A DNA stretch of 64,000 nucleotides. Origin: Escherichia phage LF82-9. The DNA lies in the sequence record PV660452; one strand, 5' to 3'. Positions 42,075-47,160 of the stretch are shown here, piece after piece. The notes below the pieces were generated by a model. It had not been told where the DNA came from. It worked only from the letters and a program-made list of their open reading frames with translations, and searched no databases. The translations under genes were made by a program, and so were the position numbers. The stretch's first letter is position 1, and each line of letters opens with the position of its first letter.

Positions 42075-42315
42075 CTCGGTCCCATGATTTGGCCATTAAT
42101 TCGGACATAAATTCTTCAATACGCGTTTCTTTAGATGGACTTTCACTATTAGAGACCGCAAGTTTGTAATCTGCAATAGGACTGAACAAATCAAGGTCCG
42201 TATTAAGGTCGTCTTTGATTTTTTCTTCTGACACATCTTTATCATATGTGTACAGATAACTATCACATGATTCTGATTTAATGTAAATTGCTATACTCAT
42301 CTCAAATTCCTGCAT
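42064..42315 (-). CDS. hypothetical acidic protein
   Basis: 83-aa ORF. Confidence 0.4.
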   Translation of the reverse strand: MQEFEMSIAIYIKSESCDSYLYTYDKDVSEEKIKDDLNTDLDLFSPIADYKLAVSNSESPSKETRIEEFMSELMAKSWDRDDE

Positions 42316-42680
42316 TCGGTAATAAAACGTTCAACTTCGTTATTCTTGGCCTTTATCTTGTCTTTACGTTCCTGTAAACTACTTTTAACAAGATTAATAA
42401 TGATGCCTATAGTACCTCCACCAATTATACCACCAATTATACTTACGATAGTAGATGCCAATAAGATAGCGATAATATCTGGTATGGCAAAGGCACTTAC
42501 TTTAGTACTAAAAAACCATACCGACGGTACAAATATAATCCATCCTGTTATCCATTGGCACTTATTGAAAAACTTTTCAAGATCAGCTTGAGTTGTTCGT
42601 ATTACTTCATCGATAGGTTGATATCCATTAATGTATCTGTTCACGATAATACCTTCGTTGCCATCGTCTATATTAACCAA
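42297..42680 (-). CDS. membrane protein
   Basis: Gly-rich hydrophobic segment IVSIIGGIIGGGTIGIIINL. Confidence 0.45.
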   Translation of the reverse strand: MVNIDDGNEGIIVNRYINGYQPIDEVIRTTQADLEKFFNKCQWITGWIIFVPSVWFFSTKVSAFAIPDIIAILLASTIVSIIGGIIGGGTIGIIINLVKSSLQERKDKIKAKNNEVERFITECRNLR

Positions 42681-43384: not shown

Positions 43385-43690
43385 TTATTTTCCTCGACAT
43401 TCTTTAATGAAATTTTCTAGATTGGTAGATTCAATAGCTTTTTTACGAGCTTCTGCATGTTCTTCTTCAGACAATTTACATTTATAATTAACCCAGACGT
43501 TATGGTCAAAACTAGTCGTGGCATATAATAACAAAGCCCCGACGAATAATAAAAATGGCGATAAGAATACAAAACCAGGAACACCATCCATATCGTAAGC
43601 CTTTTGTAATACTGCAACAGAAAGAGCTGCGTAAAAAAGTGATACAAATATTGTTAAAAGACCAATTCGGTTGGTTTCTGTTAATTTCAT
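43385..43690 (-). CDS. membrane protein
   Basis: Two hydrophobic helices. Confidence 0.45.
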   Translation of the reverse strand: MKLTETNRIGLLTIFVSLFYAALSVAVLQKAYDMDGVPGFVFLSPFLLFVGALLLYATTSFDHNVWVNYKCKLSEEEHAEARKKAIESTNLENFIKECRGK

Positions 43691-43760: not shown

Positions 43761-44717
43761 TTATTTGAAAGGTTTTACCATATGAAAGTTTTGTTTGAAA
43801 CGCTTGACGTAATCGTCGTGTCCTAAGCTTTGGTACATACTTACTACTTTGCTATAATTTTCCCAAGCGAACTCACGGAACCATCCTGATGTGATTGATG
43901 TACAGACCTTTTCAAGGGCCATCATAAAACTATCACGTGGATGGATTTCAAAGTTATTAGGAATCTGAGAACGTTCTAACGCTAGTACACATGATTCTTC
44001 GTATACGCCGGCCAATTTGACCATTTCTGGTAATGATTCGAACTTCTCGCGTGAGGTCATGACTTCAGAACCATCTTTCATATAAAATGTATACGCTGGA
44101 CGGTCCGTTAGTGCAATGGCTTCGTGAATAGTATCATGGTCATACGTATAGATGTCATCTTTAAAGAATGCGCTTTTAGAAGTGTCAAGAACTGGGTGAG
44201 CATAGTTCAAGGTTTCTTTCTGGCGTTTCAGCATAATTTCATTAAGTTCATCGTTCAGTGTAACACCTTTACCACGAAGATACTGAATATGGTTCATAGT
44301 CTTTAAAAAGAATGGATTATTTTTCTTGAAACGATGGGACATCTTAATTGCAAGGCACATCTCAGGAGTTGCCCAGTAAAACCCGTTCAAACGGTCTTTA
44401 GTCAAATTTTTCTTGGCGTATTTTAAAAGGTCATAAGAAGACGTGAAATCTTCAGGAGTGAGTTCACCGACTAATTCACGGACATTAGTGATTGCCGGAA
44501 CAATATATGCTTCAAAATGAGTTTCGCGCCCATTATGGAAGCATTTGAAAACTTGGACATCAGGGTTATCTTGGTGAACATATACACCCATCATTTGATT
44601 TTTGAATGCATTCCAAGAACCTTGGTCCGCAATAAAGTCCCAATCACTATTTTTAATAGCGCTAGAATCAATAAGACCGTGATAGTGAAGTGCACGAGAA
44701 CCAATAACTAACATCAT
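43761..44717 (-). CDS. hypothetical protein
   Basis: 318-aa ORF. Confidence 0.5.
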   Translation of the reverse strand: MMLVIGSRALHYHGLIDSSAIKNSDWDFIADQGSWNAFKNQMMGVYVHQDNPDVQVFKCFHNGRETHFEAYIVPAITNVRELVGELTPEDFTSSYDLLKYAKKNLTKDRLNGFYWATPEMCLAIKMSHRFKKNNPFFLKTMNHIQYLRGKGVTLNDELNEIMLKRQKETLNYAHPVLDTSKSAFFKDDIYTYDHDTIHEAIALTDRPAYTFYMKDGSEVMTSREKFESLPEMVKLAGVYEESCVLALERSQIPNNFEIHPRDSFMMALEKVCTSITSGWFREFAWENYSKVVSMYQSLGHDDYVKRFKQNFHMVKPFK

Positions 44718-44745
44718 AATATTTTCCTCGGATTAATTCATTAAC

Positions 44746-44997
44746 TTAAATTTCACGACATGCGATATTATATTCATCCCAGAGGTCATCATGTGAAGCC
44801 TCTACCAATGGAACGATTGTACCGTTTATGTCTTCATTATAAGGGCAAATTGTACAGTGCGCATCTTCGAATCGGATGCCTTTGTGTTCAGATTTTTTAT
44901 AACGCATATCGAATATCTTTGCAAACTTTTCACGAGTAATGGTTTTACCAACCACTTTGGTTCCGATACTTTCGTAATAAATCATTGTGGACTCCAT
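44746..44997 (-). CDS. hypothetical protein
   Basis: 83-aa ORF. Confidence 0.45.
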   Translation of the reverse strand: MESTMIYYESIGTKVVGKTITREKFAKIFDMRYKKSEHKGIRFEDAHCTICPYNEDINGTIVPLVEASHDDLWDEYNIACREI

Positions 44998-45004
44998 TTG
45001 TTTT

Positions 45005-45043
45005 GATAGGACTACTATAACATAGCCCTATCTTGTTGTAAAC
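45005..45043 (-). promoter_or_regulatory. early promoter/stem-loop cassette
   Basis: GTTTACA N17 TATAGT, sequence nearly identical to 43711 cassette. Confidence 0.45.
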
Positions 45044-45047
45044 TGTT

Positions 45048-45245
45048 TTAGCAAGAATAACTAGATGATACCCAGCCTTGAACAGTGATACTATTGTGGG
45101 ATAATGAGATCGCGTCCTGGAGATTCAGACCTGCGTTATCTTCAATCCATAATGTAACTTCTTCGCGTTCTTCTGTTGCAATTTGGAACAGGTTTTCCAG
45201 AGCAGCTACTGCCGTACGTACAGCACAATCTAATTCACGAGACAT
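45048..45245 (-). CDS. small protein, member of tandem paralog triplet (C-terminal WVSSSxxC)
   Basis: Ends QGWVSSSYSC; identical TAAGGAATCAT-ATG junction to neighbours. Confidence 0.5.
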   Translation of the reverse strand: MSRELDCAVRTAVAALENLFQIATEEREEVTLWIEDNAGLNLQDAISLSHNSITVQGWVSSSYSC

Positions 45246-45254
45246 ATGATTTCC

Positions 45255-45527
45255 TTAGCATTCCATAGAAGATGCAACCCAACCACCTGATTCGAGGCTG
45301 GTGTAATATGAGTGTTGGTTGACAGTGGCCCAATTCGGATTGCCTTGTTCGGTATAATGCTCAAGTTCTTTTTTCAAGAATCCAGGAGAATAATACGTTC
45401 CACCCATACCATAAGCTGGATACAAGTCGAATGTTGTGTTTTGTTTATCAGCAATTTCTTTGGCAGCCTCAATAGCTGCATAGATTTTTGCTACAGCTTC
45501 AGCCAGTTCGGTTTGTTCTTTAGACAT
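45255..45527 (-). CDS. small protein, member of tandem paralog triplet
   Basis: Ends GGWVASSMEC. Confidence 0.5.
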   Translation of the reverse strand: MSKEQTELAEAVAKIYAAIEAAKEIADKQNTTFDLYPAYGMGGTYYSPGFLKKELEHYTEQGNPNWATVNQHSYYTSLESGGWVASSMEC

Positions 45528-45536
45528 AATGATTCC

Positions 45537-45842
45537 TTAGCACAACGCAGAAGACGAAACCCAAGCACCTTCAGTAATAACGTAACCATTACCTTCACGC
45601 TTAACATCGCCACCATTATTTTCAATTTCATCTTTCATCCACTGGGATACGATTTCACCCTTAGGATAATAAGTACGACCGCTACCATAATCACCTACAG
45701 AAAACGATACAGCGTATTGGTCTGCAATCTTTGTAGCTTCTTCTTCGATACGTTCAGCTTGATTCAGAAGTTTATAAATTGCATCTGAAGCGGATTTGGC
45801 ATCATTAAACTCTGGTACTTTAATTTCAATAATCTTACTCAT
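45537..45842 (-). CDS. small protein, member of tandem paralog triplet
   Basis: Ends GAWVSSSALC. Confidence 0.5.
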   Translation of the reverse strand: MSKIIEIKVPEFNDAKSASDAIYKLLNQAERIEEEATKIADQYAVSFSVGDYGSGRTYYPKGEIVSQWMKDEIENNGGDVKREGNGYVITEGAWVSSSALC

Positions 45843-46198
45843 TTTCTACATTCCTTAATAAAGTTTTCTATTGTTTCATTTTCACGTCTAGCTAGGAGTT
45901 CATTATAACTAATCATTTGAGAAGCGTAAACCTTTTTATTTTTCTTGTTATGGTTTATAAAATCGTAGTAAAAATAGACTACAGTACAAAATGATGCGAT
46001 GGATGCAAAGGCTTGAGTATATCGTAAGTCCTGCCATTGGTCTGTGAATCCACCGGTGTTCCCTATAAATCCTAACACAACTCCGTCAATAAGAAATCCA
46101 ACTAATCCAAAGGCAAATCCCATGCCAATACTCATAATAAAAATTAGAATGTTCTCACCGAGAGAAGGCCGTACGGTTAAGAGTTGAGGCTTTTGCAT
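45839..46198 (-). CDS. membrane protein
   Basis: Hydrophobic helices. Confidence 0.45.
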   Translation of the reverse strand: MQKPQLLTVRPSLGENILIFIMSIGMGFAFGLVGFLIDGVVLGFIGNTGGFTDQWQDLRYTQAFASIASFCTVVYFYYDFINHNKKNKKVYASQMISYNELLARRENETIENFIKECRK

Positions 46199-46572
46199 CT
46201 TATTTCCTTAACGAATTCCATAGCTTCTTCATATTCATACTTTTTAACAGCTTCAACATACTGAGCTTGGGCTTTTGCGCACTGAACTTTCCACTCGCGA
46301 ACTCGAGCTCTGTGATGACGGCCTTGGTGCCAATATCCTGCCCAATTAATAGGCATTAATAAAAACGGTACAATAAGTGGTGCGACGAACATTAATGAAA
46401 ACGCTGCATCAGACGTTATAACTTTATTGGAATCTAAAATAGCTCCTATAATCATAAAGATTAAAAATGCTAAAGCTAAAATAGGGCCAAATAGTACTTC
46501 GTTTGGGATTAATTTACGTTTGTATTCGTATGCCCAGGGCTTAATTGGCATGTACAGGGTTGGCTTTGACAT
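46177..46572 (-). CDS. membrane protein (start uncertain)
   Basis: Hydrophobic helices; internal ATGs at 46572/46551. Confidence 0.4.
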   Translation of the reverse strand: MSKPTLYMPIKPWAYEYKRKLIPNEVLFGPILALAFLIFMIIGAILDSNKVITSDAAFSLMFVAPLIVPFLLMPINWAGYWHQGRHHRARVREWKVQCAKAQAQYVEAVKKYEYEEAMEFVKEIRCKSLNS

Positions 46573-47137
46573 ATTCTCTACATTCCATAATAAATTGCTC
46601 AAGGATTAAATTGTTAGTGAAATTAGGACTAACAACCATAGTTTCATAAAGCGCATCAATAGCACTTAAAGCATCAACTCTTTTAAGCAAAGGCTTGCCT
46701 TCATACATAGTTTCAGAATCGATGATTAACGTAAAGTAATATTTTTTATTATCGACTAGAACTTCTGTATCGATATAAAACATATTAGACCTCAGAAGCT
46801 TATCTCTAAAACCATAATAATCTTCTGAACGTTCGCTGATATATTCCCATTCAGTGTTTAAACAACAAACAGACCATGTAGGAGCAACGAAATCAGTGAA
46901 TCTAATATCATGGTCTGCAACTAGTTTAGCAATAGCTCCGATATCATGAATCATAATACCTGGGGCTAATAAAGATTTTCGGCGATTTGCGTATTCAGTT
47001 GTCTCATAAGAAGCTGACCAGTACCATTTACGTCCAGTTGCAACATATCGTAATGAATCAACTAAAGACGTAGGTGGATTTACCTTATCTCGGAACTCTT
47101 CGAACATTGAGTCAATATCATTATTTTGGTTTCGCAT
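46541..47137 (-). CDS. hypothetical protein (ATG with AAAGGAG SD)
   Basis: MRNQNNDIDSMFEEF...; track start is TTG. Confidence 0.5.
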   Translation of the reverse strand: MRNQNNDIDSMFEEFRDKVNPPTSLVDSLRYVATGRKWYWSASYETTEYANRRKSLLAPGIMIHDIGAIAKLVADHDIRFTDFVAPTWSVCCLNTEWEYISERSEDYYGFRDKLLRSNMFYIDTEVLVDNKKYYFTLIIDSETMYEGKPLLKRVDALSAIDALYETMVVSPNFTNNLILEQFIMECREYVKANPVHAN

Positions 47138-47160
47138 GTTAACTCCTTTATTATCCAAAA

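Follow-up and report, generated by a model that had tools for sequence, protein, structure and literature searches.

Small acidic genes at the e.2-e.3 locus

The DNA examined, referred to here as the window, is a stretch of 64,000 nucleotides from Escherichia phage LF82-9 (PV660452), a Mosigvirus, i.e., an RB69-like T4-type coliphage. The region 44700-46300 is 95-96% identical to phages PhAPEC2, SA79RD, APCEc01 and others. Three adjacent small ORFs lie on the minus strand in the plastic region between e.2/RB69ORF134c and e.3. In annotated relatives they are hypothetical proteins, orthologs of RB69ORF136c to ORF139c. The features of the locus are as follows.

45902..45930, minus strand: promoter-like site (TTTACG-17-TATAAT) inside e.3, upstream of the three genes
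45537..45842, minus strand: 101-aa acidic protein (pI 4.6), an RB69ORF139c ortholog in PHROG 899, predicted to have an N-terminal long helix, a DYGSGRTYYP hairpin, a variable segment and the tail GAWVSSSALC
45540..45569, minus strand: tail codons of the 101-aa gene (G-A-W-V-S-S-S-A-L-C)
45525..45542, minus strand: junction TGCTAAGGAATCATTATG, with the Cys codon, stop, Shine-Dalgarno sequence and start of the 90-aa gene
45255..45527, minus strand: 90-aa acidic protein (pI 4.7) in PHROG 899, a paralog of the 101-aa protein, with the AYGMGGTYYSP motif and the tail GGWVASSMEC
45258..45287, minus strand: tail codons of the 90-aa gene (G-G-W-V-A-S-S-M-E-C)
45243..45260, minus strand: junction TGCTAAGGAAATCATATG, with the Cys codon, stop, Shine-Dalgarno sequence and start of the 65-aa gene
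45048..45245, minus strand: 65-aa acidic protein (pI 4.2), an RB69ORF136c ortholog in PHROG 4882, consisting of a helix, a strand and the tail QGWVSSSYSC
45051..45080, minus strand: tail codons of the 65-aa gene (Q-G-W-V-S-S-S-Y-S-C)
45014..45042, minus strand: early-promoter-like site (TTTACA-17-TATAGT) within a hairpin just after the 65-aa gene
44746..44997, minus strand: 83-aa gene (PHROG 3723) between the three small genes and the partner gene, present only in T4-like loci and not part of the conserved core
43761..44717, minus strand: 318-aa partner protein and putative enzyme (Pfam DUF7277 + DUF7275; PHROG 2141; RB69ORF134c ortholog)

The stop codon of e.3 overlaps the start of the 101-aa gene (ATGA). 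The next two junctions, TGC-TAA-GGAATCATT-ATG and TGC-TAA-GGAAATCAT-ATG, are nearly but not exactly identical, and each has a 9-nt spacer containing a Shine-Dalgarno AAGGA. The degenerate pattern occurs only at these two places in the window, against 0 expected. Promoter-like sites lie inside e.3 and again after the 65-aa gene, where a hairpin annotated as a terminator in a relative separates the transcription unit of the three small genes from that of the 83-aa and 318-aa genes. Expression is expected to be early or middle.

Of 548 six-frame ORFs of 30 aa or more in the window, only these three end in SS..C or W..SS..C. The Ser codons of the tails differ between copies (TCG, TCT, TCA, AGT, and GCA for Ala), so conservation acts on the protein and is not a recent DNA repeat. 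DNA similarity between copies is limited to the tail/junction (49 nt, 76%) and the YGxGxTYY motif (28 nt, 79%). These are therefore old copies kept similar by selection on the protein.

The original prediction described a tandem triplet of paralogs joined by the same junction, made by tandem duplication and sharing a conserved C-terminal tail. The observation itself is confirmed, since the three ORFs exist exactly as described, but on the minus strand. Paralogy, however, can be demonstrated only for the 101- and 90-aa proteins, for which profile-profile alignment with hhalign gave a probability of 98.6%, and still 97% after the last nine residues were removed. The 65-aa protein aligns to them only over the last 14 residues (E about 1e-4), and with the tail removed the probability falls below 2%. 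It also belongs to a different PHROG. The profile matches were significant for the 101- and 90-aa proteins to PHROG 899 (E = 1.3e-22 and 7.3e-19) and for the 65-aa protein to PHROG 4882 (E = 7.7e-37). Both PHROGs are annotated as of unknown function. The triplet is thus two paralogs plus a third protein that shares the tag.

Distribution and conservation of the tail

Word-indexed searches revealed orthologs in Escherichia, Shigella, Klebsiella, Enterobacter, Edwardsiella and Aeromonas phages and in 360-370 kb contigs, all of which end in G-W-x-[S/A]-S-S-x-x-C. The 101-aa type was found by tblastn in 484 phage records. An exhaustive profile search found 526 clusters at 50% identity with E<=1e-3. 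The consensus is an N-terminal amphipathic helix (…AExIADExGxxFxF), followed by AYGMGGTYYP, a variable and very acidic linker, and the tail. Among the best 146 representatives, 134 end exactly in Cys and 9 in Cys plus one residue. Within those 134, W(-7) is present in 132, S(-4) in 134, S(-3) in 131 and C(0) in 134. The median pI is 4.56. About 18% carry extra upstream W-x-S-S units, a few with their own Cys; examples are WESSSEGWESSSEGWVSSSSQC and three W-x-S-S-x-x-x-C units in the family representative P0152. Truncated copies exist in RB69 (71 aa) and in mar005P1 (75 aa), which shows that single members are dispensable.

The tail is carried by several unrelated N-terminal parts. In addition to the 65-aa family, families of 52-59, 106-110 and 139-159 aa that do not match the profiles have the same tail at the same place. 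Low-complexity coincidence with no homologs elsewhere, which had been named beforehand as the outcome that would overturn the original prediction, is clearly excluded by these data.

An AF2 model of the 101-aa protein built with the family alignment is confident (pLDDT 91). It predicts a long helix at residues 15-43, a hairpin carrying DYGSGRTYY, a short helix and a three-stranded sheet. The tail forms the last strand and a terminal helical turn of this compact fold, although the last residues are less confident.

Searches of PDB, Pfam, NCBIfam and PADLOC with the small proteins gave only noise. The single match among the defence and anti-defence families of PADLOC-DB was a chance-level hit of 12.5 bits. 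The combination of a beta-grasp fold and a C-terminal Gly-Gly, expected of ThiS/MoaD-type sulfur-carrier or ubiquitin-like proteins, was not found. Two labels in the databases were also ruled out. One phage carries the label inhibitor of prohead protease on a homolog, but hhalign against T4 Inh gave a probability of 0.1%, and T4 Inh has no such tail. The label sulfurtransferase in related phages sits on the e.3 homolog, not on the three small genes.

Linkage to a DUF7277-DUF7275 gene

In a distant 92-kb contig, a tail protein lies two genes upstream of a DUF7277+DUF7275 protein. The window has the same architecture, with the 318-aa ORF at 43761-44717 lying two genes downstream of the triplet. 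This gene was not part of the original prediction, as it lies outside the coordinates given there. In every fetched locus with sufficient flank, a homolog of the 318-aa protein was found 0-1.5 kb downstream of the small proteins on the same strand, including in non-T4 contigs such as the 92-kb contig and in 358-kb and 371-kb jumbo phages. This also held for further representatives looked up individually.

The converse test began from the enzyme-like gene. Of 80 diverse viral loci anchored on the 318-aa family, 73 have at least one ORF ending in the tail pattern upstream on the same strand, and two more have tails one residue shorter (SSWVQSSC and NWDSSTC), giving 75 of 80. Loci carry from one to six tail ORFs. 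Five of the 80 loci have no tail ORF within 5 kb. The tail pattern hits 158 of 1747 upstream same-strand ORFs, 0 of 1731 downstream same-strand ORFs and 0 of 3509 opposite-strand ORFs. In the 50 most diverse loci the small-protein cluster is present in 45, and no other gene family is present in more than 15, so the linkage is not general synteny. No third conserved component was found in these loci; a metallophosphatase-like gene follows the enzyme gene in only 15 of 50.

The enzyme family is found in 733 phage records. The module is essentially restricted to phages, since a scan of 185,579 species genomes gave six hits, all on MAG contigs. Distant, shorter members of the enzyme family in Streptomyces, Gordonia and Vibrio phages keep the G-S…D-x-D motif, but lack tail ORFs altogether and instead neighbor a different protein of 97-112 aa.

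The putative enzyme

The 318-aa protein matches DUF7277 and DUF7275 with 97.2 and 266 bits against a gathering cut-off of 27, and all 33 diverse homologs examined match both domains. In the alignment of these 33 sequences, with a mean column identity of 34%, about 45 residues are invariant. Across 33-73 homologs, the invariant residues include G6-S7, D25-x-D27 and E69, in the order and spacing of the pol-beta nucleotidyltransferase signature, together with those of a His/Asp/Glu/Cys-rich C-terminal domain, and comprise K125, H128, R129, H174-P175, H194-D195, H198, E240-E241, E248-R249 and K270-V-C-T-S-I-T-S-G-W-F-R281. Among 73 homologs, G6 and S7 are present in 72, D25 and D27 in 72, and E69 in 68, which at the level of the motif fits hG[GS]-x(9-20)-D-x-[DE] plus a third acidic residue on a later strand. 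This is the conservation pattern of an enzyme, but the nucleotidyltransferase assignment rests on a short motif only. The H…(20)…HD…E arrangement in an apparently all-helical C-terminal part is reminiscent of HD phosphohydrolases, although neither a Pfam HD hit nor a PDB hit was obtained. No clean pattern of covariation was seen between W279 of the enzyme and the presence of a tail.

Attempts to relate the protein to a family of known function gave nothing informative. PDB profile searches with the full-length protein and with the N-terminal domain returned no hit at E<=10. Pfam scans of 12 and 33 homologs gave nothing beyond the two DUFs except one member against DUF6036 at E=0.25 and one weak ENCP4 hit in one member at E=0.09, which is noise. 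NCBIfam gave nothing. A profile-profile comparison with a real pol-beta family (RlaP) gave a probability of 0.1%, and a single-sequence AF2 model had a pLDDT of 36.8 and was unusable. One depositor independently labelled an Acinetobacter phage homolog as a putative nucleotidyltransferase, and that phage also has tail ORFs just upstream.

Interpretation

The most economical reading is that the three ORFs belong to a large, phage-restricted set of small acidic proteins defined by a C-terminal tag, (D/E)-G-G-W-x-[S/A/P]-S-S-x-x-Cys-COOH, and that the tag is the handle through which they work with the co-encoded DUF7277-DUF7275 protein. The interpretation offered in the original prediction is thus partly supported: a shared interaction or modification tag is favored by comparative genomics, whereas tandem duplication holds only for the 101- and 90-aa genes. 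What the analysis itself establishes is that the tag is nearly invariant and modular, that genes bearing it are almost always found in one to six copies directly upstream of, and co-oriented with, a DUF7277-DUF7275 gene in otherwise unrelated phage genomes, and that the partner has the conservation pattern of an enzyme. The remainder is inference. In this view, the N-terminal helix-strand part of each small protein would dock on the enzyme and the tail would enter its active site. The enzyme would then covalently modify the tail, the Ser-Ser next to Trp being the likeliest acceptor, for example by O-nucleotidylation given the G-S…D-x-D…E motif, with the terminal Cys as an anchor or a second reactant. 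The modified acidic proteins would act early in infection on host or defense targets.

That the small proteins and the putative enzyme are functional partners is likely. Covalent modification of the tail is more tentative, at somewhat less than even, and nucleotidylation as the chemistry is doubtful. The explanation as a whole is about as likely as not, an overall judgment placed between the first two of these levels. There are no experimental data. The folded tail in the AF2 model is less expected for a flexible substrate peptide, and both the five enzyme loci without a tail ORF and the distant homologs in actinophages and Vibrio phages count against the explanation, as do the promoter/terminator-like element and the unrelated 83-aa gene between the triplet and the enzyme gene in this phage.

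A second possibility, unlikely but not excluded, is that the small proteins are regulators of the enzyme rather than its substrates. As inhibitors, activators or specificity subunits, they would insert the tail into the active site, for example with the Cys thiolate or carboxylate binding a catalytic metal, and different paralogs would redirect or gate the activity of the enzyme on some other target such as a nucleic acid or a host protein. The gene linkage fits this reading as well as the substrate reading, and the predicted compact domain is unlike a peptide-like precursor. The different small neighbor of the distant enzyme homologs suggests that the enzyme family generally works with a small partner. 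On the other hand, the precursor-first gene order, the multiplicity of up to six tagged genes per enzyme, tags on unrelated N-terminal domains, internal repeats of the W-x-S-S unit and invariant nucleophiles (Ser, Ser, Cys) favor substrates over stoichiometric regulators. Intact enzyme genes without any nearby tail ORF (loci L055, L080 and L105 of the enzyme-anchored set) indicate that the enzyme is not obligatorily neutralized by a tail protein.

It is still less likely that the tail works independently of the neighboring enzyme, as a thiol- or metal-dependent oligomerization site, a docking motif for a host protein or a stability signal, with the adjacency reflecting co-regulation or co-inheritance within an accessory-gene cassette. 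In this phage the triplet and the enzyme gene are in adjacent rather than identical transcription units, and single members are dispensable, as the truncated copies show. In two contigs, L121 and L126, a tail protein follows a different gene, encoding an RlaP-family protein, and no DUF7275 gene is visible in the short flank. RlaP was therefore considered as an alternative partner, but 26 of 28 RlaP loci elsewhere have no tail ORFs, the two that do also carry the DUF7275 gene, and there is no RlaP-DUF7277 profile similarity. Moreover, the association with DUF7275 holds, with strict order and strand and with no other family co-conserved, across T4-like, jumbo, rV5-like and Pseudomonas phages and uncultured phage contigs with otherwise different neighborhoods.

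A chance or low-complexity resemblance, or a by-product of the overlapping ribosome-binding site, might be suspected because Ser-rich stretches are common and the Cys codon abuts TAAGGA at two junctions, but it is refuted by the third copy, which has the same tail without a downstream Shine-Dalgarno sequence, by the differing Ser codons, by the conservation of the motif in hundreds of distant homologs with other junctions, and by zero tail hits among about 5,200 control ORFs.

Comparison with known systems

By analogy only, the arrangement recalls RiPP or lanthipeptide-type precursor-plus-enzyme clusters, including AviCys-forming systems such as epidermin. In these, one or several small precursor genes lie directly upstream of a modifying-enzyme gene, and there is a conserved N-terminal recognition part, a variable middle and a Ser/Ser/Cys-containing C-terminal segment. 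A terminal Cys with Ser at -3 is the arrangement used for AviCys rings, and S…C units are repeated in some members of the present family. However, although the S-S-x-x-C-COOH core-like motif is present, no LanB, LanM, LanKC, LanC, LanD, YcaO or radical-SAM homolog was seen in the Pfam hits obtained for the partner, the immediately flanking window genes and the called genes of several related loci (L003 and L127 among them), a scan that did not cover every gene of every locus. The partner is an unrelated DUF7277-DUF7275 protein, the small protein is predicted to be a stable folded domain, there is no evidence of cleavage or export, and the system occurs only in virulent phages.

Reversible protein nucleotidylation of the GlnD-PII type likewise pairs a two-domain enzyme, with an N-terminal G-S…D-x-D…E motif and a C-terminal all-helical domain with H…HD…E-type invariant residues, with a small protein partner. 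There is no sequence similarity to GlnD, to HD domains or to PII, and the candidate acceptor would be Ser or Cys in a C-terminal tail rather than Tyr in a loop; both the nucleotidyltransferase and the HD folds are putative here, and the all-helical C-terminal part of the partner is only apparent. C-terminal cargo or targeting tags, such as encapsulin cargo-loading peptides encoded upstream of the shell gene, are also short conserved peptides shared by otherwise unrelated small proteins encoded next to the protein that recognizes them. In the present case the partner shows enzyme-like invariant polar residues and no similarity to shell proteins, and the tail contains nucleophiles rather than a hydrophobic docking motif.

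The proteins of the window are clear members of PHROG 899, PHROG 4882 and Pfam DUF7277 and DUF7275, but these families are known only as uncharacterized entries, and those returned here describe neither the tail motif nor the linkage between the families. Literature searches in the library consulted found no paper on the RB69 ORFs, the DUFs, the PHROGs, the motifs or their association. With no sequence, fold or system-level match, the module does not fit any described kind of system and is regarded as categorically new, with the caveat that its function is inferred from comparative genomics alone.

A more far-reaching reading, which is unlikely on present evidence but is not ruled out, is a phage-specific protein-tagging system. 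The DUF7277-DUF7275 enzyme would recognize the W-x-S-S-x-x-Cys tail on a changeable set of small acidic effector proteins and install a covalent modification needed for their early-infection function. Candidates are Ser O-nucleotidylation, or dehydration followed by attack of the terminal Cys to give a lanthionine- or AviCys-like ring, made by an enzyme unrelated to all known RiPP machinery.

If the tail is a substrate tag for the DUF7277-DUF7275 protein, this would be a previously unrecognized post-translational modification or partner system, found in at least 733 sequenced phage records for the enzyme family and 526 protein clusters for the tail family, spanning T4-like, jumbo, rV5-like and Pseudomonas phages and essentially absent from bacterial genomes. 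It would assign a first function to two Pfam DUFs and two PHROGs, and it would explain a recurrent cassette in the hyperplastic e.2-e.3 region of T4-type genomes. It might also reveal a new enzyme chemistry acting on Ser/Cys tails.

A second C-terminal motif and neighboring genes

The Cys-terminated tail is not the only recurrent C-terminal sequence in this part of the genome. Five small ORFs, mostly predicted membrane proteins and including the homologs of e.3, e.4 and e.5, end in a second recurrent motif, (E)NFI-x-E-C-R-(G)-K, FVKEIRCK or FIMECRE:

42297-42680, minus strand, small ORF with the second C-terminal motif
43385-43690, minus strand, small ORF with the second C-terminal motif
45839-46198, minus strand, small ORF with the second C-terminal motif
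46177-46602, minus strand, small ORF with the second C-terminal motif
46541-47158, minus strand, small ORF with the second C-terminal motif

At the junction between e.3 and the gene for the 101-aa protein, the Lys-Glu codons AAGGAA double as the Shine-Dalgarno sequence of the next gene. The same tails recur in other T4-like loci, such as locus L055. Between the triplet and the putative enzyme gene (44746-44997, minus strand) there is an 83-aa protein with a C-x-x-C pair (…AHCTICPYNE…), which belongs to PHROG 3723 and is conserved only in T4-like loci.

The number of tail-bearing genes varies among phages. In the Dhakavirus/JS98-like loci (L036-L046) a fourth such gene, encoding 69-75 aa, follows the gene for the 65-aa protein, again with 9-nt junctions, for example at L038:3874-4095. 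Two further loci, L099 and L106, carry five to six tail ORFs. On the other side of the DUF7275 gene, a protein of about 247 aa with a metallophosphatase-type GDVHGN motif is encoded immediately downstream in 15 of 50 diverse loci, as at L084:2428-3291. In two short metagenomic contigs (L121:94-1062 and L126:1-678) the tail protein directly follows a gene for an RlaP-family (PF10127) nucleotidyltransferase, with start and stop overlapping. This arrangement is not general, since 26 of 28 RlaP loci have no tail ORF, and the two that do also carry the DUF7275 gene.

Distant homologs, annotation and loss of individual members

Distant, shorter DUF7275 homologs were found at loci in Streptomyces phage Beuffert (the pair gp203/gp204), Gordonia phage Lozinak (gp16/gp17) and Vibrio phage ValKK3 (ORF224/ORF225). 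These keep the N-terminal G-S…D-x-D motif, but have no Cys-tailed neighbours. Instead, a protein of 97-112 aa with a shared '…Y(F/K)xTGYYDS…VEV.P' segment lies next to them, and this may be a different small partner.

Two public annotations, in phage F31 (OP870147.1, F31_0135) and phage ESCO10 (OM386655.1), look doubtful. The label 'sulfurtransferase' sits on the homolog of the e.3 membrane protein, and the label 'inhibitor of prohead protease' sits on a homolog of the 101-aa protein, and T4 Inh shows no similarity to this family. The RB69 copy of the gene for the 101-aa protein (RB69ORF139c, 71 aa) and the mar005P1 copy of the gene for the 90-aa protein (75 aa) are truncated before the tail. 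Individual members of the set are therefore lost in some isolates.
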